This document shows positions 23,057 to 42,136 of a stretch of 64,000 bases of DNA, piece after piece. The notes under the pieces are model-generated. The model saw only the letters and a program-made list of their open reading frames with translations. It ran no database searches and had not been told where the DNA came from. This DNA is from a bacterium (lineage in GTDB: Bacteria; Actinomycetota; Acidimicrobiia; Spongiisociales; Spongiisociaceae). The first letter of the stretch is position 1, and every line of letters begins with the position of its first letter. The stretch spans positions 13,609 to 77,608 of the forward strand of contig JAPOQZ010000266.1 in NCBI GenBank assembly GCA_026710435.1. The letters run 5' to 3'. Position numbers and translations under genes: made by a program.

Positions 23057-24472
23057 ATGGCAACCGTATGGGATGCCGTTGTCGTAGGAGCCGGGACGGC
23101 AGGCCTGCCCGCCGCCATATTCGCTGCCCGTCGCGGGATGCGGGTACTCGCCGTGGAGAAGAGCCACCAGGTCGGCGGAACCCTTTACCTCTCGGGTGGC
23201 CACATGAGCGCGGCCGGGACCCGCCACCAGGAGCGTCACGGGGTGGAGGACTCCCCCGAGGAGCACTTCCGCGACGTCATGGCTTTTTCGGAAGGCAAGG
23301 CCAACCGGGACCTGGTCCGTCTCGCCACCGGCAACGCCGCGGGCACTATCGACTGGCTCGACGATCTGGGCTTCGACTTCTCGCCGGAGTGCCCCGCTCC
23401 GACCGTCCATTTCCACCACAACCCCTACTCCAAGGCACGCATGCACTGGGGAACGCGCGCCGGGTACTCGATCCTGGACCTGGTGGTCCCGGAGTTCGAG
23501 TCCGTGGTCGCCGACGGCTCGGTCGAGTTGGCGCTCAACACCAGCCTTGTTGGGCTGGACCGGAGGGGCAATCGGGCATGGGGCGTTCTGGTTGACGGGC
23601 CGGACGGCCGGACGGTACACACCGCTCGGGCGGTTGTTCTCACTGCCGGTGGCTATACGGCCAATCCCGAAATGTTCAGGGATCTGAGCAGCGGCCGGCT
23701 GGTTTCTCCCGGGCTGCTCACCGTGACCGGGGACGCTCACCGCATCGTCGCCGAGTTGGGTGGAAGCCTGCGCAACGGTCACCGCTGGCTGCCGACCTTC
23801 GGCGGTATCGAAGATCCGGATACACCGCATCGGGCTGTTCACACCGACTACTGGGCATCCCTCGCTCCCCAGGTCCGACCGCCCTGGGAGGTCTACGTGA
23901 ACCGAGCCGGAAGGCGGTTCATGTCGGAGGAGGAGGGCGACGAGGTCACACGGGGTAGAGCCCTCCGAGCGCAGCCGGGTCAGGTCTTCTGGGTGGTGTT
24001 CGACGAGGCTGCCCTCGACCGCGCGCCACCCCTGCTCCCCGGCTGGGGTGCCGAAGGGGTCCGTTCCCGGGCCGGAGACTCCCCTCCACTGTTCAAGGGC
24101 GGATCGCTGGAGGACTTGGCGGCTGTGGCCGGGATCGATCCTGCCGGCCTCGTTGCGACCGTCTCGGCCTACAACGCAGCAATCGGTGGTGCGCCCGACG
24201 AGTTGGGGCGGAGGCACCTGCCCCTTGCCATCGAGACACCGCCTTTCTACGCGGTGGAGAACCATGCCACGACGCTGCGCACCCCGGCCGGCGCGACGGT
24301 CGACGCCGCTCTCCGGGTGCTCGACGCCAAGGGTCGTCCATTCGGCGGGCTGTACGCCGCGGGCGAGACTCTGGGTAGTGCGGTGTTCAGTGGTGGTGGA
24401 GCAGCGGCCGGGATGAGCATCACGCCGGCGATGACGTTCGGCCGGTTGCTGGGATCGAGCCTGATCTCGTAG
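23057..24472 (+). CDS. FAD-dependent oxidoreductase (FAD_binding_2)
   Basis: DAVVVGAGTAGL, VVLTAGGY, VDAALRVLD..G.PFGGLYAAGE, TFGRLLG. Confidence 0.88.
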   Translation: MATVWDAVVVGAGTAGLPAAIFAARRGMRVLAVEKSHQVGGTLYLSGGHMSAAGTRHQERHGVEDSPEEHFRDVMAFSEGKANRDLVRLATGNAAGTIDWLDDLGFDFSPECPAPTVHFHHNPYSKARMHWGTRAGYSILDLVVPEFESVVADGSVELALNTSLVGLDRRGNRAWGVLVDGPDGRTVHTARAVVLTAGGYTANPEMFRDLSSGRLVSPGLLTVTGDAHRIVAELGGSLRNGHRWLPTFGGIEDPDTPHRAVHTDYWASLAPQVRPPWEVYVNRAGRRFMSEEEGDEVTRGRALRAQPGQVFWVVFDEAALDRAPPLLPGWGAEGVRSRAGDSPPLFKGGSLEDLAAVAGIDPAGLVATVSAYNAAIGGAPDELGRRHLPLAIETPPFYAVENHATTLRTPAGATVDAALRVLDAKGRPFGGLYAAGETLGSAVFSGGGAAAGMSITPAMTFGRLLGSSLIS

Positions 24473-24497
24473 GTTTCTTTGATCGTAAGGAGTTCCA

Positions 24498-25643
24498 ATG
24501 CCTGAGAACGGACGCCGCGCTATCGACGCAGACTCCCATGTGGGTCTGGCGCTGGACACATGGGACCGCTTCCTCGATCCGAGCCTGAGGGATCATCCCC
24601 GGCGCCCCCGCTTCGAGGAGGCCGACGGCATCCACTACTTCCTGGCGGACCGGTACCGGTGGCCGTCGCATACGGGACGGTTGCCGTACCGCACCCCCTC
24701 CGGTTACGCGCCGGGTCCCCGGGGAGGCGTGGACGCCGACTACCGCATGGAGGACTTCATGGACCCCGAAGGAGTCGATCGGGGAATGCTCATGCCGGGC
24801 CGGTTCATGTCGGCGGTTTCCTACTTCGAGGACATCGAGATCGGCAACGCCCAGGCCAGGGCCTACAACGACTGGCTGGCTGACTTCTGCAGCTCCCACC
24901 CGAACCGGCTGTTCGGGTTCGGGGTGATCAACGTGGCCGATCCATCCGGGGCGGTGGAGGAGATGCGCCGCTGCGTCCATGAACTGGGTTTTCCAGCCAT
25001 CTACATGTCGCCTTCGGTGGTCGGACGGGATCCGGACGAGTACCGGGTCATGTCCGACGAGCACTTCTATCCCATGTACGAGGAAGCCGCCCGGCTCGAC
25101 GTTCCGCTGTCGATCCACGCCTTCAGCGATCCCAACGTCGAAGGACATTCCCACAACTGGCCGAGATCCGGCTCCCTTCTTTGGAGCGACATCGTCGGCT
25201 TCCCGTTCCAGGGCATGCAGGTGTTCGTCAACCTGGTGCTCGGCGGAGTGTGCGACGCCTTCCCCGAGACCAAGTTCGGGATCTTCGAATCGGGTCTCGG
25301 ATGGATGCCGATGGTCATAGACCGCATCCACGAACGTCGGGAGAAGTTCACCGAACTGGTCAGGATGGCGGCTCCGGACATGGAACTCCTCCCCGAGGAG
25401 TACATCCAGCGCCAGATCTGGATGGGCTTCGAGCCCGAGGATCCGTTCCTACCTGACTTCATCAAATGGACGGGGGCGCCGGAGCGGACCCTACTCTCGA
25501 TCGACTACCCCCACCTCGACTACGAGCCCGGCCAGCTCGAGGGATTCCGCGCCCGAGGCGATGTGTCGGAGGACCACATCAGGCTGGCCGAGTGGGACAA
25601 CTCCATCGAGTACTTCAAGTGGGAGGGAACAGCGGCCCGGTAG
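24498..25643 (+). CDS. Amidohydrolase family protein (Amidohydro_2, decarboxylase/hydratase-like)
   Basis: IDADSHV, ARAYNDWLADFC..P.RL, VPLSIH, GGVCDAFP..KFGIFESG.GW, SIDYPH. Confidence 0.9.
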   Translation: MPENGRRAIDADSHVGLALDTWDRFLDPSLRDHPRRPRFEEADGIHYFLADRYRWPSHTGRLPYRTPSGYAPGPRGGVDADYRMEDFMDPEGVDRGMLMPGRFMSAVSYFEDIEIGNAQARAYNDWLADFCSSHPNRLFGFGVINVADPSGAVEEMRRCVHELGFPAIYMSPSVVGRDPDEYRVMSDEHFYPMYEEAARLDVPLSIHAFSDPNVEGHSHNWPRSGSLLWSDIVGFPFQGMQVFVNLVLGGVCDAFPETKFGIFESGLGWMPMVIDRIHERREKFTELVRMAAPDMELLPEEYIQRQIWMGFEPEDPFLPDFIKWTGAPERTLLSIDYPHLDYEPGQLEGFRARGDVSEDHIRLAEWDNSIEYFKWEGTAAR

Positions 25644-31351: not shown

Positions 31352-32336
31352 ACACGGAACCGCTCTCGGGGTCTCCGTATGCGGGGTCGACAACCTCGAG
31401 GGATCGCTGGAGTACTACCGGGACCTGGTCGGCCTCGATGTCGTCGATAGGGGAACCTGGTCTGGTCGGGAGTTCGAGGATCACTGGCACCTGCCCGCCG
31501 GGAGTTCGGCCCGGACCGCCCTGCTCGGCTTCGGTGGCAGTCCTGTGGGCCGCGTACTGCTTCTCGAGTTCGACGCCTCCCAACGTCTGCGGGTACGGCC
31601 GCAGAAGGAGCGGGCCTTCTACGGGTTGTTCAACCTCAACTTCTACTGCTACGACATCCCGGCGGCGGTAGTGGAACTGAAGGAGCGCGGCTACGACGTG
31701 TGGAGCGATCCGCTCACCTACGATGTCTCGGCCCAGGCCGGCCAACCCACCGAGGTCCTGTACGACGGGCCTGACGGGGTCATCATCAACCTCGTCCAGC
31801 CGGCTGGCGGGGGAGGGACCGCCGTGGGCGAGATGAAGGCTTACCTGGACTCTCACGGTGTCACGCAGCGGGGCTTCACAGAGGTGGCGACCTCGTCCCA
31901 TCGGGTCAAGGACCGGGAGGCGGCTTTTGCCTTCCACCGCGATGTCCTCGGCCAGGACGTGTTCATAGACGCCACCCTCGGATCCGAGACCAGTAACCAA
32001 CTGTGGGCCCTCCCGGACGAGGCTCGTACGAGGGCTACGTTCATGCGGGGTGCCCATCCGTTCGGCAAGGTCGTCCTGAGCCAACCCCTCAACTACCGGC
32101 CACCCGACTTCGTCCCTCGCGCGGTCGCTCCCAACATCGGCTACCTGGCGATGGTGTTCCCGGTATCGGATCTCGGCACTGCTCTGGGTGCGGCCGACCT
32201 GGGTGACGACGGAGTAATAAACCCACCCGCGGAGATGCTGCTCCCAGGCGTGGGTAGGAGGGCCGTGGCCGCCATCAGGGCTCCCGGCAGTGGGGCACGC
32301 TACGAACTCATGGAGGACGAGGTCCCTCTGCCCTGA
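31344..32336 (+). CDS. VOC family protein, two domains
   Basis: AGGAG RBS; GVDNLEGSLEYY, GPDGVIINLVQ, APNIGYL. Confidence 0.85.
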   Translation: MSEHGTALGVSVCGVDNLEGSLEYYRDLVGLDVVDRGTWSGREFEDHWHLPAGSSARTALLGFGGSPVGRVLLLEFDASQRLRVRPQKERAFYGLFNLNFYCYDIPAAVVELKERGYDVWSDPLTYDVSAQAGQPTEVLYDGPDGVIINLVQPAGGGGTAVGEMKAYLDSHGVTQRGFTEVATSSHRVKDREAAFAFHRDVLGQDVFIDATLGSETSNQLWALPDEARTRATFMRGAHPFGKVVLSQPLNYRPPDFVPRAVAPNIGYLAMVFPVSDLGTALGAADLGDDGVINPPAEMLLPGVGRRAVAAIRAPGSGARYELMEDEVPLP

Positions 32337-32414
32337 GTCAACACAGCAACCGGAGAACGTCGGTTCATGGCGCATGCTTGGTCGCTGCGCCACCGTAGCT
32401 GTACAGTCCATCTG

Positions 32415-33455
32415 GTGCGGGGCGCCATATACCGGGAGTTCAACGGGCCGATCACGGTGCAGGAATTGCCCGATCCGCTGCTGCCCGACGACGGGGTACT
32501 GATCGAGGTGAGGGCTTCGGGGCTGTGCCGGAGCGATCTGTTCGCCTGGCACGGCCACGACCGCGACATCTCGTTGCCGCACGTACCAGGGCACGAGTTC
32601 GCCGGAGTGGTCGCAGGAGTAGGTGCAGGCGTAGCGCGCTGGTCGGTGGGTGACCGGGTGACCGCACCTTTCTGCTGCGGTTGCGGCGCCTGCGACCAGT
32701 GCGACGCGGGTAACGAGCAGATCTGCGACAACTACTTCCAGCCCGGATTCACCCATTGGGGCGCCTTCGCCCGCCTTTGCGCAATCCCCCACGCCGATAC
32801 CAACCTGGCGGAACTCCCGGAGGAACTGTCGTTCGAGCATGGCGCCATCCTCGGCTGCCGCATGATCACCGCTTACCGGGCCCTTGTCGAGCGGGCCCGG
32901 CTTGTCTCGGGCGAGTGGCTGGCCGTCCACGGATGTGGAGGACTCGGACTGTGCATGGTGATGATCGGCGCGGCTGTCGGCGCCCGGGTGGTGGCTGTGG
33001 ACATCGACGAGGACGCTCTGGCTCTGGCGAGGGCTGCGGGCGCGGTCTCGGCCGTCACCGCCGATCCCGACAACGGCCGGGCCACGGTGGGAGCGGTGCG
33101 CGACGCCACAGCCGGGGGCGCCCACGTGTCGGTCGATGCCCTGGGAAACGCCGAGGTGGCCGCCAACTCGATCCGGAGCCTGCGCAAGCAAGGACGCCAT
33201 GTGCAGGCGGGGCTGGTGGCCCGGCGTGCGACGGCGCTACCGATCGCAACGGTCGTGGCCAAGGAGCTCGAAGTGCTCGGAACGAAGGGGATGTCGGCTC
33301 GCCGTTACCCGGCCCTCATGGAGTTGATCCGAGCCTCGCGCATCGACCTGAGCCTCCTGGTCCAGCGGACTATGGGGCTTGGCGACCTGCCTGAGGCGTT
33401 CGAGGCCATGGAGCGCTTCGGTGGAAGCGGCGTCGCGGTTGTCAACGACTTCTGA
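32415..33455 (+). CDS. Zinc-dependent alcohol dehydrogenase family protein
   Basis: GLCRSD, PGHEFAG, CCGCGACDQC...C structural Zn cluster, VHGCGGLG. Confidence 0.93.
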   Translation: MRGAIYREFNGPITVQELPDPLLPDDGVLIEVRASGLCRSDLFAWHGHDRDISLPHVPGHEFAGVVAGVGAGVARWSVGDRVTAPFCCGCGACDQCDAGNEQICDNYFQPGFTHWGAFARLCAIPHADTNLAELPEELSFEHGAILGCRMITAYRALVERARLVSGEWLAVHGCGGLGLCMVMIGAAVGARVVAVDIDEDALALARAAGAVSAVTADPDNGRATVGAVRDATAGGAHVSVDALGNAEVAANSIRSLRKQGRHVQAGLVARRATALPIATVVAKELEVLGTKGMSARRYPALMELIRASRIDLSLLVQRTMGLGDLPEAFEAMERFGGSGVAVVNDF

Positions 33456-36362: not shown

Positions 36363-36569
36363 CGAGCCCCGATTGTCCATCGGGGTTTGCACCGGAGGAA
36401 CGGGGTGTGGGATGTGAGCTTCTGGCGAGGGACTCCGGCCCCCTCGATAGTCTCGTTTCGGCCCGGTGCCACCTTCACCTGTTGAATGAAGCCCGGCCCG
36501 ATCGCGATGGACTGGCTGATGCGGCATGTTGCCCCGGGCATGTCTGGAAACACGAAGATTCAGCGCTGG
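36363..36569 (-). mobile_element. MITE family B copy 4 (inverted)
   Basis: CCCCGATTGTCCAT...GAGCTTCTGGCGAGGG...CACGAAGATTCAGCG; its end supplies the TGA stop of the LLM gene. Confidence 0.8.
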
Positions 36570-37579
36570 GTACCTGCCAGGATCGCCTCGCGGAGTTCGG
36601 CTCTCGCCACCGCGGCATCCTGCCGGGTCAGCCCGAAGGGTTCCGGCAGGTGCGAGTAGAAGTTTCCGCATCCCACGGGCACCACCTCGTCAACCTCATC
36701 CACTGCCGCCAGATTCATCATGACCCGATCCGGCGTGCTGACCAGGATGAAGTCACGTACCAGATCGTCGGTCAGCAGCCGGGCCGCATCCTTCCAACGT
36801 CCGAGCCCCACGAGCCCGGCGAATTCGTCGCTCAGCTCCCGGCCCGCAGCTTCGGCGAGGCGCTCCTTGTACCAGGGCCTCGACATAGCCACGGTGAGAT
36901 CAGCACGCGCCAGGTGGAGTGCCCTCTCCTCGTCTGGATCCACGGAGACCACCATTCCCGTGCTGAGATGGAACGGCCGGGCCCGATCCCGGTTGACGCT
37001 GATAATGGATATCCGGTTCCGTAGGACGGGGCGGGCTGTCATGAGATGCAGGATCACGCCGTCGCTGTGGCGGGCCGCCCACCGGAGGGTCTTGGGACCC
37101 TGCGCTCCGATCACGACCGGGACCCGGTCCGCGCCGAGACCCAATCCCGGCGAAGCAGCGCGGTGGTGATCGGTCACTATCTCGACCGGTTCGCCGGCAC
37201 GTCCCCGCAGCACGGCTAGGACGCACTCGGTGAAGCTGCGCAGGCGCGCCAGGGGAGGCCGGTATCCCACGCCATGGGAGTGTTCGTTCGTGGTCGGTGT
37301 TCCGATTCCCAGGCCGAGGACGAGCCTGCGTCCGAAACTTGCGATGCTCGCGGCCGCGAGTGCGGTCTGGAGGGGTGAGCGGGTGGGCAGCGCGACTCCG
37401 ATCGAGAGCGGGACGTGCTCGGTGGCGGTCAAGGCCAGAGTGGCATCGACGAAGCCGTCCCGGCCCGGTACATCTGCCGACAGGATACTGCTGGATCGGC
37501 CAAGCTCGGCCCGTCGACAATCATCGAACCAGTCACGCGAAGACTCGGACAGCGCCCGGCAATAGGAGACATGTGCCAT
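36560..37579 (-). CDS. LLM-class oxidoreductase (divergent)
   Basis: LALTATEHVPLSIGVA..TRSP..TA.AAA, RLVLGLGIG, PVVIGAQGPK..RWAARHSDGV. Confidence 0.8.
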   Translation of the reverse strand: MAHVSYCRALSESSRDWFDDCRRAELGRSSSILSADVPGRDGFVDATLALTATEHVPLSIGVALPTRSPLQTALAAASIASFGRRLVLGLGIGTPTTNEHSHGVGYRPPLARLRSFTECVLAVLRGRAGEPVEIVTDHHRAASPGLGLGADRVPVVIGAQGPKTLRWAARHSDGVILHLMTARPVLRNRISIISVNRDRARPFHLSTGMVVSVDPDEERALHLARADLTVAMSRPWYKERLAEAAGRELSDEFAGLVGLGRWKDAARLLTDDLVRDFILVSTPDRVMMNLAAVDEVDEVVPVGCGNFYSHLPEPFGLTRQDAAVARAELREAILAGTQR

Positions 37580-37835
37580 TGGTGATCTCGTCTTCTCGTG
37601 GTCGGGCATGCGGAACAACACGTAAACGCCCGCGGAGTCCTGCTTGTTCCGACTATGGGAACCATAGCTAACGCCAGAGAATAACCAACGGACACAAGGC
37701 GAGGTGATGATCCGATACGATAGGCAAAGGTTCGAGGATATCCCCCGACGATCCTGGAAATGATCGCCGTTTACAGACTTTTGAACTAGAAACCTGTAAG
37801 AAGGTTGAAGCTGGTGGGGCAGAGTATCGATTCTC

Positions 37836-38442
37836 ATGCAATTGGACAACACGGATCTGGAGATTGTTCGCCTGCTAGGAGGGTGCTGAGCAATCCACCA
37901 GCGGCCTGCCAACCGCCGGCATAATTCCTGGGCTGGCGGGCGGCAGGCCCGAGCAATCGTCATTGTTCAGCACCCTGCTAAGTGAAGACGGCCGGGCAAG
38001 TTACAGCGATATATCGAAATCCATCAGGGTTAGCGCGGGGACCGTTCGCAATCGAATCAACCACATGCGCTCAGCTGGCTTTCTCCATGTCAAGGGATGG
38101 CTCTATCCCTATCGTTCTGGGGTTGGCGTCCATGCGATCCTGCTGGTCAAGGTTCGATGCGGGCGGGTCGACGAGGCAATTTCGGCCCTCGTAGACCTCG
38201 ACGAGACCGGCTACGTGGCGACTCCGGCAGGTTCCTGGGACGCAGTGGTCGACGTATTCTGTGACGATGTGGCGCATCTACGTCGGTTTATACACGACAA
38301 GATTCAGAGGATCGATGGTGTCCTGGACTTCTCCACCCATCTCGTAACAGAGACCAAATACGAGTCGAGCGTCAACTTTCTCGGAATCTACTCTGACTCC
38401 AGGGGTGGAACTGCTCCGTCAGTGCCCCCAACCCGAGTCTGA
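37836..38442 (+). pseudogene. Lrp/AsnC family transcriptional regulator interrupted by a MITE
   Basis: MQLDNTDLEIVRLL | 103-bp insert | SEDGRASYSDISKSIRVSAGTVRNRI...GSWD; removing the insert restores a canonical AsnC HTH. Confidence 0.88.
37875..37981 (-). mobile_element. MITE family A copy 6 (99 bp, inside the Lrp/AsnC gene)
   Basis: CTAG-GAGGGTGCTGAGC...GTTCAGCACCCTG-CTAA; near-identical to the reverse complement of copy 2. Confidence 0.9.
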
Positions 38443-38585
38443 CCAGCGCGGGGCGGGACTACCTGCCTGTGGAGGCGCTGGCGACCGGGTAGCATGAGGT
38501 GCCGCGGAGGCGGTTTCCGACTGTCGCCGGCCCGGAGAGTCCGTCCTTCGCATCTTGGTCAGAATGGACATCCCGGGGAGTACCG

Positions 38586-39512
38586 ATGATCTCACCTATA
38601 TCGGTTGCCACGATCGGGGTCAGCGACCTCGAGAGATCGGCCAGGTTCTACCGACACCTGCTGGATTGGGAGTTGGTGGCGGCAGGGGACGTGGACGGGC
38701 CCGATCTCGAGGCCCTATGGCGAATGCCCGCCGGCCTGCGTGGTCGGGCGGTGGTGATAGGTGCTCCCGGCACCGCCCTGGGTCGCGTCCGGCTCATCGA
38801 ATGGGCGAAGCCGGGAGAGATGGTGCGCGATCCCGCCCGGAACCAGGACTTCGGGCACTACGCCCTCAACTTTCGGGTTGGCGATCTGGAGTCGGTCTGG
38901 GAACGCCTCGAGGAGATCGGGGGCAGCGCCAGGTCGAGGCCCAACACATGGGTGGTGGCTGAAGGTATCCTCGCCCATGACTCGCTGTGCTACGACCCCG
39001 ACCGCATTACATGTGACGTGTTCGAGCTTCCCGACGAGGGCCCACTCGGTCCTCTGGGCGATCGCCCGTCCAGCGAACTCCAGACGATGGCGATCCGTCC
39101 GAGCGACATTGCTGCTTCAGTGGCGTTCTACCAGGGCTTGGGATATGAGGTTTGGTACGACCACAAGACCGACGGGATAGAGGGATTCCTCCATCTCCCG
39201 GAGGGCACCACGCTCCACAATGTGAACTTCCACATGCCGCGGCAGAGCCGTAACGGGCGCGTCGAGCTGGCCGCTTACCTCGGGTTTCCCGGAGTGCCGA
39301 CTTCGCATCTGGCGGTGCCTCCCAATATCGGCATCATGTCGATCACGTTCGAGAGCGATGACTTCGACCACGACGTGAGCCTCTTGGAGAAGGTGGGAGG
39401 CTTCCCGGTTGCTACTTCTGACGGGGTGGAGATCGTACCTTATGGGCCAACCAGGGTCGCCACGTACTTGGGACCCGACGGCGAGGCCATCGAATTGGTG
39501 GAGGTCGGATGA
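38586..39512 (+). CDS. VOC family protein, two domains
   Basis: GGGGAG RBS; ATIGVSDLERS..FY, GHYALNFRV, PPNIGIMSITFE, YLGPDGEAIELVE; close paralog of 22060-23052. Confidence 0.88.
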   Translation: MISPISVATIGVSDLERSARFYRHLLDWELVAAGDVDGPDLEALWRMPAGLRGRAVVIGAPGTALGRVRLIEWAKPGEMVRDPARNQDFGHYALNFRVGDLESVWERLEEIGGSARSRPNTWVVAEGILAHDSLCYDPDRITCDVFELPDEGPLGPLGDRPSSELQTMAIRPSDIAASVAFYQGLGYEVWYDHKTDGIEGFLHLPEGTTLHNVNFHMPRQSRNGRVELAAYLGFPGVPTSHLAVPPNIGIMSITFESDDFDHDVSLLEKVGGFPVATSDGVEIVPYGPTRVATYLGPDGEAIELVEVG

Positions 39513-40087
39513 ACATACGTGGGATTCCATTCGAGGAGATGGACTCCTCGATGCGCCGCAGGGCTGAGGCGGCCGCAGAACTCAGCGGCGACATGCGGTT
39601 CATCCGGGCAATAGCAGCAGCTCCCCACATGGTCGACTTCTACTTCGGCGGCTTCTACGAAGATGTGTTCTTCGGTGGCGAGGTTCCGATCATCACCAAG
39701 GAATTGGTCCGGCTGAGGCTCTCGAACCTGCACGGGTGTGCCTTCTGAAACCGCACCAATCCCGTCTCGGCGAGACGGAACGGAGTAAGCGAGGAACAGA
39801 TCGAAGCAGTGGCTGGAGACATCCGATCTGGTCCCTTCACCGAGGCCGAGAAGGCGGCTCTGGCTCTAGCCACGGTCCTGTCCAACGCGGTTCAGGATGG
39901 GTTGGTGGATGAACAGCTGGCGGCCGAGTTGCACCGCCACTACACGGACGGCCAGATCATGGAACTGGCGATGGTGATCGCCATACTCACCGGCATGGCC
40001 CGCATGCTGTTTGCCTTCGACCTCGCGGATCGAGAGCAGGCTTGTCCGGTCGGTGGTTTGTCCGGGGGTCAGAGCAACGACAACTGA
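39509..40087 (+). CDS. AhpD / carboxymuconolactone decarboxylase-like protein, predicted selenoprotein (CxxU, Sec at TGA 39746-39748)
   Basis: TKELVRLRLSNLHGCAF-TGA-NRTNP..ARRNGVSEEQI...FTEAEKAAL...HYTDGQIMEL continues in frame; hairpin just downstream of the TGA. Confidence 0.8.
39761..39779 (+). promoter_or_regulatory. Candidate bacterial SECIS hairpin
   Basis: CCGTCTC-GGC-GAGACGG, 7-bp stem with a G-starting loop about 21 nt after the in-frame UGA. Confidence 0.6.
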
Positions 40088-41115
40088 CTCGATGTTTCAT
40101 CCACGCACCGGAGGGGAGAGTATCCGGGCGTGAGGGCGTGAGAGGTGTCGAGGTAGACCTTGGCCTCGGGCGCGCCGCTGAACCGGCCGTGACTCCACCG
40201 CACCTCTACGTGCCCGTCCACACGCCGTGGTGTCCCAGAAGTCCTGTCCATGAGTTCGGCCCACCACCTGACTACGGGCTGTCCGGCGCTCGTATCGGGT
40301 TCTGCCTCGAATGCCCGGAACCCGTAACGCTGCCGGAAGTCCCATGGCGTACCGACCCGGAAGCGCACCGGCTGTCCGGCCGACGCCGTGCCCAGGATGA
40401 AGTAGGGCGCGGCTTGGAGGCGGAGCAGGCGCCACAGCATCTCCTCGCGCGCTAAACGGTCGGTGCCGAGAGCCCTCTGCCACCGGGTGGCAGACGCGCT
40501 AGAGACAGCCGCGCAGAACCGCCGGTAGGGACCGGCAATGTCAGGCGGCCACGTGCGTTCGAAGCGTCCCTTCAACCTGAGGCGGTCGGTACTGGTGAGC
40601 CGATCGAGAGTTGACGGAAGATCGCCGCTGCCGAAGTGCTTCCGGCATGCGCGGTACAGCTCCTGGTATTCGGTTGGGGCCGCCTCAAGGTACCAATCGG
40701 TCCCGTCCCCTCGGCGGTTGGCCAGCAGGCGGTCGAACAGGTGAGCGGGAGAGACGTTGTAGAGCACATTCGATCTGTATTTGCAGCTTATGAGGAAGAC
40801 GTAGTCGACGCGGAGATCAACGGGGATCTGCTCGTAGCCAGGGGGATTCTGGTTTCCTTTCCATTCAACCCTTTCCGGCACCCGATCCTTCAATCCGTCC
40901 GCTGACGACGCGAAGGCCCGACCGTTTTCCCAAGCGTCCTCGAACAGCTGGTGCTGTTCCCCAGCAGCCCGCGCATCCTTCAATTGGTTGAAGTGCCGTC
41001 CGGCGACGTTGAGCATCTCTCTCGGGCGCGCATCCAGGGCTTCGTCCAGGCACTCGATTCCAAGCATGGCCAGACCTGTAACGATCTCCGATATCTCGGT
41101 GCGGAGGCTGGCCAC
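40069..41115 (-). CDS. Putative type II restriction endonuclease (PD-(D/E)xK variant)
   Basis: Immediately downstream of a DNA methyltransferase gene; PVDLRVDYVFLISCK (D...SxK) catalytic-like motif. Confidence 0.6.
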   Translation of the reverse strand: MASLRTEISEIVTGLAMLGIECLDEALDARPREMLNVAGRHFNQLKDARAAGEQHQLFEDAWENGRAFASSADGLKDRVPERVEWKGNQNPPGYEQIPVDLRVDYVFLISCKYRSNVLYNVSPAHLFDRLLANRRGDGTDWYLEAAPTEYQELYRACRKHFGSGDLPSTLDRLTSTDRLRLKGRFERTWPPDIAGPYRRFCAAVSSASATRWQRALGTDRLAREEMLWRLLRLQAAPYFILGTASAGQPVRFRVGTPWDFRQRYGFRAFEAEPDTSAGQPVVRWWAELMDRTSGTPRRVDGHVEVRWSHGRFSGAPEAKVYLDTSHALTPGYSPLRCVDETSSQLSLL

Positions 41116-41194: not shown

Positions 41195-42136
41195 TCAACC
41201 CTCACCAGTACCCGCCTGAGCTATCCGTGTCCTCGCCAGCTCCACGTAGGTCGGGTCGATGTCATAGCCCACCGCGCGGCGGTTGGCTTCGACCGCCGCC
41301 ACCAGGGTGGTACCGGAACCCATGAACGGGTCCAGCACCAGATCCTGTTCGTACGTGTACAACTGGATCAGGCGGGCTGGCAACTCCACCGGGAAAGGTG
41401 CCGGATGCCCGATCCTGCTCGCATGGGCGGGAGGAATCTCCCAGACATCCAGGGTCGCTTCCATGAACTCGTCCCGGCCGATCGTTGCCTTGTGGGGGAG
41501 TCCGTCCTCCCGGCGCCGGGCGGGAGACAGAGCACGATTGAACCGGCCCTTGCCGGCGATAACGACCCGTTCGGTGACGTCCCGCAAGACGGGGTTGGTC
41601 GGGCTGCGCCACGACCCCCAAGCGCAGGATCCGCTGGAGGCCTTGGCCTTGCGCCAGATGACCTCTCCGCGCAGCAGAAGACCCAGGTCGTCCTGGAGGA
41701 TGCGGATCACATCGGCGCTGAGGCTGCGGTATGGCTTACGTCCCAGGTTGGCGACGTTGACCGCGATCCGTCCACCTGGCTCGAGAACCCGCAGGCACTC
41801 TCCGAAGACATCGCGAAGAAGGGTCAGATAGTCGACGTAGGATTCGGGAACCTGCCGGCCCGCCACTGCCTGCTCGTAGTCCTTCCCGACGAAGTACGGC
41901 GGTGAGGTCACGACCAGAGCGACGCTGTTGTCAGGGAGTTGCTCCATCTTCCGGCTATCGCCATGGATGGGCTGGGGCTGGTCGAACCCGTCGGCCGGCT
42001 TGACACGATCGTCGGTAGACAGCTCTGGTGGAGCGAACCGGGCGTAGAAGGCGGAGGCATCGTGACCCTCGCGCCGGCCCGCTCCGAAGCTCGATGTGGC
42101 TGTGCTCCTCCGAGAATCCTGTGTGTGGTGCGCCAC
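41195..42136 (-). CDS. Site-specific DNA methyltransferase (beta class, probably m4C)
   Basis: VTSPPY precedes HPAPFP and LDPFMGSGTT. Confidence 0.93.
   Translation of the reverse strand: MAHHTQDSRRSTATSSFGAGRREGHDASAFYARFAPPELSTDDRVKPADGFDQPQPIHGDSRKMEQLPDNSVALVVTSPPYFVGKDYEQAVAGRQVPESYVDYLTLLRDVFGECLRVLEPGGRIAVNVANLGRKPYRSLSADVIRILQDDLGLLLRGEVIWRKAKASSGSCAWGSWRSPTNPVLRDVTERVVIAGKGRFNRALSPARRREDGLPHKATIGRDEFMEATLDVWEIPPAHASRIGHPAPFPVELPARLIQLYTYEQDLVLDPFMGSGTTLVAAVEANRRAVGYDIDPTYVELARTRIAQAGTGEG

Follow-up and report, generated by a model that had tools for sequence, protein, structure and literature searches.

Selenoproteins that carry selenocysteine (Sec, U) in place of the second cysteine of an AhpD-type CxxC motif have been on record since 2005 and are known mainly from environmental data, as a sequence-only reading of the locus described here had stated (Zhang, Fomenko & Gladyshev 2005, PMC1088965; Zhang & Gladyshev 2008, PMC2398784). 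The Sargasso Sea survey of 2005 reports CxxU AhpD-like selenoproteins (COG2128, 27 sequences) and CMD-domain selenoproteins (PF02627, four sequences) (PMC1088965), the Global Ocean Sampling data contain 299 members of the AhpD-like 1 and 70 members of the AhpD-like 2 (pfam02627) family (PMC2398784), and both families are listed in a 2026 review, in which the model of the AhpD-like family is TIGR01926 (PMC13188914). We have analyzed a gene of this kind in a 64,000-nt stretch (referred to as the window in the following) of contig JAPOQZ010000266.1 from an assembly of a sponge-associated Acidimicrobiia genus (GCA_026710435.1), and we conclude that it is very probably an intact single gene for a Sec-containing member of the CMD/AhpD-like proteins, with an in-frame UGA that would be decoded by means of a selenocysteine insertion sequence (SECIS) element. 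The gene resembles the marine families in its PF02627 domain, in the position of Sec as the second residue of the CxxU pair, in its widespread Cys homologs, in a bacterial SECIS with a G in the apical loop, and in its marine origin. It differs from them in that its host belongs to a sponge-associated genus of Acidimicrobiia and in that it appears to be coupled to a VOC gene, and it further differs from the AhpD-like family in scoring below the TIGR01926 cut-off and belonging to a subgroup of proteins of ~190 aa with the signature HGCxxC/U ... CP.

The window gene adds a member to a family whose CxxU motif was already described and leaves the general knowledge of selenoproteins unchanged; what it supplies is a concrete selenoprotein candidate for a lineage of sponge symbionts. 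SelA and SelB co-occur in the majority of sponge-symbiont genome bins and are missing from most close reference genomes, and the passage of that study on the enrichment of Sec-synthesis genes names no selenoproteins (PMC5649159). Our searches of the literature for selenocysteine together with sponge and Acidimicrobiia, or for "Spongiisocius", returned no description of this gene.

Standard open reading frame (ORF) calling splits the gene into an ORF of 79 aa (39509–39748) and an ORF of 92 aa (39809–40087) that begins with a GTG codon. The two starts are 300 nt apart and the ORFs thus share a common frame, which bears out the proposal of the sequence-only reading that they form one product of 192 aa. 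When the TGA at 39746–39748, which is codon 80, is read as U, the complete gene extends on the plus strand from the ATG at 39509 to the terminating TGA at 40085–40087 (39509..40087) and encodes 192 residues including the stretch ...LSNLHGCAF-U-NRTNPV.... The CxxU redox motif at 39737..39748 on the same strand consists of Cys77 (TGT, 39737–39739), Ala, Phe, and Sec80 (TGA, 39746–39748), and 20 codons separate the TGA from the GTG. TGA is the stop codon of 13 of the 16 Pfam-supported ORFs that were examined in the window, the selenoprotein gene itself being among the 13; the codon is, therefore, used as a normal stop and has not been reassigned.

Orthologs were searched for in a set of 61 genomes. 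The window genome (G000) is a metagenome-assembled genome (MAG) of 270 contigs that is 95% complete with 7.6% contamination, and the window lies on its contig C161. Three congeneric species (G001, G002, and G007) have orthologs with 82–84% protein identity, and each ortholog contains a single TGA, located at the codon where the window gene has it; the four remaining genomes of the genus in this set gave weak paralog matches or none. Two of the three ortholog assemblies are closed or nearly closed, and G001 is a single contig.

A SECIS-type hairpin and the machinery for selenocysteine

Downstream of the TGA, at 39762..39778 on the plus strand, lies a hairpin with a 7-bp stem (CCGTCTC at 39762–39768 and GAGACGG at 39772–39778) and the apical loop GGC (39769–39771). 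The stem begins 13 nt and the loop 20 nt past the UGA. The stem-loop is thus situated just 3' of the UGA and has a short apical loop containing a G, which is the arrangement of bacterial SECIS elements; the description of bSECISearch places the loop ~16–37 nt from the UGA. The frequency of such structures by chance was assessed by counting perfect Watson–Crick stems of 7 bp or more that have a loop of 3–8 nt, a G within the first two loop bases, and a loop start 16–37 nt downstream. Comparable hairpins are found at 529 of the 63,920 plus-strand positions (0.83%) and after 10 of the 727 TGA triplets of the window.

The 18 nt from CCC through CGG are identical in all four orthologs, synonymous sites included. 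Of the 11 codons between 81 and 94 whose amino acid is conserved, 10 also have an invariant third position, compared with 38 of 73 elsewhere in the gene (one-sided Fisher p = 0.014), and the third position does not vary in any of the six hairpin codons 85–90. Related genomes of the same order contain paralogous CMD genes with one TGA, and among 12 paralog loci examined ten have a Cxx-TGA followed by a hairpin; the remaining two (L118 and L119) have no Cxx-TGA under the criteria used. For the covariation analysis we aligned the four orthologs with the seven paralogs that share the register of the window hairpin (alignment A5, 11 rows) and excluded L117, L120, and L121, whose hairpins are in another register. 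All 77 cells of this alignment pair, compensatory double changes are present in five of the seven base pairs, and none of 500 shuffled alignments equaled the score; when the alignment was slid as a control just 30–51% of the cells paired. Among 36 loci of Cys homologs none has six or more of the seven pairs in register, and a 7-bp hairpin of any kind within the permitted span is found in just one. Given that the hairpin is present in the CxxU genes and absent in register from the Cys homologs, it tracks the TGA and not the protein sequence. The invariance, the covariation, and the control with Cys homologs support the assignment of the hairpin as a SECIS-type element, which the sequence-only reading had put forward from a single sequence, and a SECIS supported by covariation offers a means of identifying the remaining selenoproteins of this group of Acidimicrobiia. 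On this assignment a ribosome that arrives at UGA80 would encounter the hairpin 13–30 nt downstream as the SECIS element, SelB together with Sec-tRNA(Sec) would insert selenocysteine, and translation would continue to the TGA at 40085.

The sequence-only reading had named a search for the sel genes as a check, and all of the genes in question were found in the window genome. The gene selD is located on contig C88 (2731–3657, locus L001; 374.9 bits), selA (427.2 bits) and selB (344.9 bits) adjoin each other on contig C124, each of the three scoring above the curated cut-off, and the gene for tRNA-Sec is on contig C237 (73.7 bits, likewise above the cut-off), where ARAGORN also calls a tRNA-SeC with the anticodon tca. 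The same four genes are present in G001, G002, and G007. In the window genome selD itself carries a TGA at the canonical site (SFSPGGG-U-ACKLGP) followed by a 6-bp hairpin with a G-first loop that starts 19 nt past the UGA, and the selD orthologs of G001, G002, and G007 (L106–L108) also contain one TGA each. Because selD has its own TGA and hairpin, the Sec system appears to be in use.

These data bear on the possibility that the UGA is read through without Sec, by a near-cognate tRNA for Trp, Cys, or Arg, or that the hairpin serves ribosome pausing or mRNA stability. This explanation draws on the fact that selenium incorporation is deduced here from sequence and on a related protein (P0002, discussed later) that has Arg at the column in question, and we nevertheless consider it highly unlikely. 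In the closed relative G001 the complete Sec machinery (selA, selB, selD, and tRNA-Sec) and the CMD ortholog are located on one chromosome, the position and the G-containing loop of the hairpin match those at the Sec codon of the genome's own selD, and the hairpin is found in all 11 CxxU genes of alignment A5, whereas not one of the 36 Cys genes has it in register. Moreover, the column corresponds to the redox Cys of the CxxC motif, a classic site of Sec (PMC1088965).

A crude genome-wide scan for TGA codons combined with a redox motif and a hairpin returned 60 candidates, most of which are noise in a genome of high G+C content, and it missed selD, which has a stem of 6 bp. Two candidates were followed up. 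Both, on contig C20 near 24384 (L122, FWAEW-U-PSC) and on contig C216 near 16381 (L123, FWSPL-U-ETC), are Redoxin/AhpC-TSA-like with a UxxC motif, combine a hairpin past the TGA with a long N-terminal region that is rich in Thr/Ala/Ser and follows a lipoprotein-like signal, and are probable further selenoproteins as judged from these features. Separately, a CMD gene without a stop lies beside a TGA-containing CMD paralog in two genomes (G008:C19:23642–24052 and 24301–24639; G059:C12:31554–32009 and 32216–32554), and G008 has five TGA-containing CMD matches.

Conservation of the gene across the TGA codon

Selection on the two parts of the gene was compared in all six pairs of orthologs. The ratio of non-synonymous to synonymous substitution rates (dN/dS) is 0.08–0.11 in codons 81–182 and 0.08–0.25 in codons 1–79, with dS values of 0.3–1.2. 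The low dN/dS past the TGA argues for translation of the downstream part in this frame, and for that of the 20 codons ahead of the GTG as well; the residues that these codons specify (81–100) hardly differ across the four orthologs.

To survey the Cys homologs we collected 67 related loci from one-per-species genomes, 39 of which have the HGC motif at the expected place; among the other 28 loci, 25 have no match to the search motif and three matched off-target. The Sec column is occupied by TGC or TGT in all 36 distant loci with a located motif and by TGA in the three same-genus loci, so that the claim of the sequence-only reading that the TGA sits exactly at the second Cys of the AhpD CxxC motif is confirmed, and the homologs have the Cys whose absence it had listed as refuting. 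Apart from the query and P0002, every sequence of a 24-member protein alignment (A2) has Cys at this column, 22 in total. The Cys homologs are single proteins of 180–200 aa.

Termination at the TGA, which would leave either a pseudogene or a gene split into two products, one of 79 aa and another of 92 aa that starts at the GTG at 39809, is the outcome of standard ORF calling, which yields exactly these two ORFs and cuts the relatives likewise. This explanation is extremely unlikely when measured against the conservation of the TGA in four species at dS values of up to ~0.9, the purifying selection downstream of it, the near identity of residues 81–100, the organization of the Cys homologs as single proteins, and a predicted fold that forms one domain. 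The way in which gene callers treat such genes is also apparent from metagenomic proteins: all seven short N-terminal fragments that were retrieved end two residues past the first Cys (for example, ...HGCEF, ...HGCAF, or ...HGCAT), which from the protein records looks like the pattern that gene callers give at a Sec codon. The sequence-only reading had anticipated that standard annotation would mistake the gene for a pseudogene, and the relatives are recurrently stored in databases as fragments ending at Cxx, an annotation error that the present assignment corrects.

The TGA and the hairpin are unchanged in contigs from three sequencing runs that are not flagged as the source of the assembly (X5, X6, and X7), and two of these contigs (X6 and X7) represent strain variants with 12 synonymous and four non-synonymous differences within the gene. 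An error of sequencing or assembly at the TGA, or MAG contamination that has placed the gene with sel genes foreign to an organism devoid of a Sec system, is barely conceivable. Although the 270-contig assembly has 7.6% contamination and its sel genes are on contigs other than that of the window, the same TGA recurs in three further assemblies (of which two are closed or nearly so) and in the contigs of three other runs, which excludes the single-read error that the sequence-only reading had listed as a risk, and the shared chromosome of G001 removes the worry about contamination.

Protein family, fold, and possible function

The predicted protein matches the Pfam CMD model (PF02627) over residues 46–122, a region that spans the TGA, with an E value of 2.2e-14 and a score of 53.7 bits, compared with a gathering cut-off of 23. 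Modeling with AlphaFold2 from an alignment of 48 sequences (mean pLDDT 93.5, pTM 0.89) gives a structure that is continuous across the TGA and consists of one helical domain with nine helices, in which the redox motif is located between helices 61–75 and 78–90. The score above the Pfam gathering threshold and the all-helical AhpD core fold place the protein in the CMD/AhpD-like superfamily. The top Foldseek matches, with TM scores of ~0.70, are the AhpD-like or peroxidase-related proteins 6k40, 2prr, 3c1l, and 2pfx and the debrominase Bmp8 (6ohj and 6ohi), and the Foldseek probability is 1.00 for 6k40, 2prr, 3c1l, 6ohj, and 7xw1. The nearest solved proteins by sequence are PA0269/AhpD of Pseudomonas aeruginosa (E 2.6e-11) followed by Bmp8 (E 6.9e-8), and the GCAYC of PA0269 and the GCMYC of Bmp8 both align with the GCAFU of the window protein. 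Cys77 is invariant and the column of residue 80 is at least 90% Cys (alignments A2 and A3).

Compared with the AhpD-type proteins, namely PA0269/AhpD of P. aeruginosa (2ijc, 2o4d, and 7xw1), the Deinococcus radiodurans protein 6k40, and AhpD of Mycobacterium tuberculosis (1knc), the window protein has the same all-helical core fold (TM 0.58–0.70), a redox pair that coincides column for column with that of PA0269, and a Glu 12 residues ahead of Cys77 (Glu65), as in PA0269, which is at least 90% conserved in the alignments. In contrast to these proteins it has Sec for the second Cys, Asn84 for the His, an N-terminal extension of ~50 residues, and no AhpC partner gene among the window neighbors examined; the structural match to M. 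tuberculosis AhpD is weak (E ~1). Gamma-carboxymuconolactone decarboxylase (PcaC) was considered and rejected as an identity for the protein: none of its four NCBIfam matches is a decarboxylase model, and no pca genes are present among the neighbors examined.

By analogy with AhpD, the product would be a cytoplasmic all-helical thiol/selenol oxidoreductase with C77-x-x-U80 at the position of the AhpD CxxC motif. Sec80 would act as the nucleophile and attack a peroxide, a sulfenic acid, a disulfide, or another electrophile, and Cys77 would resolve the intermediate to a selenenylsulfide that could be recycled by a cellular reductant; the upstream VOC protein would be co-translated and would probably serve the same process. 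The assignment of the attacking and the resolving residue follows from work on AhpD of M. tuberculosis. These catalytic roles, the candidate substrates, and the link with the VOC protein are proposals.

A more specific proposal is that the VOC–CMD(U) pair is a selenium-dependent detoxification module peculiar to sponge symbionts, for example, a reductive dehalogenase similar to Bmp8 or to the Sec-dependent deiodinases. The selenol would in that case attack the halogen or another electrophile on a sponge-derived compound such as a brominated aromatic, and the VOC protein would bind the compound or open its ring. Bmp8 is a reductive debrominase of marine bacteria. It shares with the window protein the CMD fold (TM 0.70), a similar length, and a marine habitat; however, the similarity to Bmp8 is no closer than that to AhpD-like proteins, and no bmp-type halogenase genes are found among the window neighbors examined. 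We regard the proposal as unlikely; if true, it would tie the enrichment of selA and selB that has been noted in sponge symbionts (PMC5649159) to a concrete chemistry.

Returning to the assignment of the gene as a whole to a Sec-containing CMD/AhpD-like protein, several observations have to be set on the other side of the balance. Insertion of selenium and translation past the UGA are predictions from nucleotide and protein comparisons. The folding energy of the 91-nt stretch with the hairpin is ordinary for DNA of 64% G+C (z = −0.31) and thus uninformative, so that the case is carried by conservation and covariation, and the 11 rows of alignment A5 come from about three related groups and, hence, represent few independent events. 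In the metatranscriptome of one run a contig of 179 nt (39317–39495) falls within the VOC gene only, possibly as DNA carry-over, and no contig covers the selenoprotein gene, a result that speaks neither for nor against expression. The metagenomic protein P0002 (192 aa), from a fifth lineage, shares 82% identity with the window protein and 86% with the G001 ortholog and has Arg at the Sec/Cys column (HGCAF-R-NRT); a protein of such kind may persist without the redox residue, or the record may carry an error. A single transition converts TGA to CGA, an Arg codon. With regard to family models, all four NCBIfam matches are below their curated cut-offs, including TIGR01926 "peroxidase-related enzyme" (33.5 vs. 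81.8 bits) and TIGR00778 ahpD_dom (23.8 vs. 27.8 bits). The best of the four, NF053654 "YciW-related (seleno)protein" (E 3.2e-13), represents (seleno)proteins from the same superfamily, but it covers residues 61–159 only and is matched with 49.8 vs. 310 bits, and the window protein is not a member of it. Finally, the AhpD His is absent, and Asn84 occupies the column of the PA0269 His four residues past the second Cys. AhpD in the strict sense is defined by the proton-relay motif Glu ... CxxC ... His described for M. tuberculosis AhpD, of which the window protein has the Glu and not the His; with Asn84 in place of the His, a peroxidase mechanism strictly like that of AhpD can thus not be taken as established.

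Near the C-terminus of the protein is a Cys-Pro pair, C179-P180 (40043–40048), that the subfamily as a whole retains and in which P180 is invariant and C179 is at least 90% conserved in alignment A2. The Cys of this pair could serve as a third redox or metal-binding residue.

Gene neighborhood

Immediately upstream of the selenoprotein gene on the plus strand (38499..39512) is a gene for a two-domain protein of the VOC (glyoxalase/dioxygenase) superfamily with matches to Pfam Glyoxalase (PF00903, E 9.4e-15) in two stretches. Its orthologs at three loci align in tblastn searches (80–82% identity) just from residue 25–29 onward; the conserved part begins near residue 25–30 and the true start is, accordingly to this comparison, probably near 38586. 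Direct reading of the sequence locates the overlap at 39509..39512 on the plus strand, where the stop of the VOC gene (TGA, 39510–39512) and the start of the selenoprotein gene (ATG, 39509–39511) form the ATGA that the sequence-only reading had pointed out. An overlap, either ATGA (4 nt) or TGATG (1 nt), is kept in all four genomes, and from this arrangement the two genes are taken to be translationally coupled.

Gene order is kept across the three orthologous loci, with the difference that G002 is devoid of one gene, for a 348-aa protein. The conserved order comprises an upstream block on the minus strand (EamA transporter, VOC-domain protein, and LLM-class oxidoreductase), the central VOC–CMD(U) block on the plus strand, and a downstream block on the minus strand (the 348-aa protein, a DNA methylase, and an MBL-fold protein). 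No pathway is recognizable among the Pfam and NCBIfam assignments of the neighbors, which are assorted oxidoreductases, hydrolases, and transporters. We also scanned 68 flanking ORFs of the 36 Cys-homolog loci and found that contexts differ by clade with no shared operon: in one gammaproteobacterial group the neighbors are an LTD protein and a PMT_2 glycosyltransferase, a second group combines an SDR protein or a thiolase with a Rieske oxygenase or an E2 component, and the neighbors at Planktophila-type loci are assorted. A VOC neighbor is absent from every one of these 36 loci. The statement of the sequence-only reading that the enzyme works within a catabolic island thus finds no support, given neighbors without a recognizable pathway, a block that is syntenic across the genus and not island-like, and Cys homologs without a VOC gene.

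Between the LLM and VOC genes of the window is an ORF for an AsnC/Lrp-type regulator (37963–38442, plus strand) for which tblastn finds no counterpart at the three orthologous loci; there, the LLM and VOC genes are just ~100 nt apart. By this comparison the ORF looks like an insertion specific to the window genome. The 348-aa protein (40069–41115, minus strand) has no Pfam or NCBIfam match. Its gene is convergent with the selenoprotein gene, the 3' ends overlapping by 19 nt, and adjoins the gene for the N6/N4 DNA methylase (41195–42136, minus strand), with which it possibly constitutes a restriction-modification pair. The protein is not found at the G002 locus and is conserved in G007 (69% identity) and G001 (60% identity). 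Orthologs of the LLM ORF (36560–37963, minus strand) align just from residue 121–129, and the start assigned by the longest-ORF rule is probably too far upstream.

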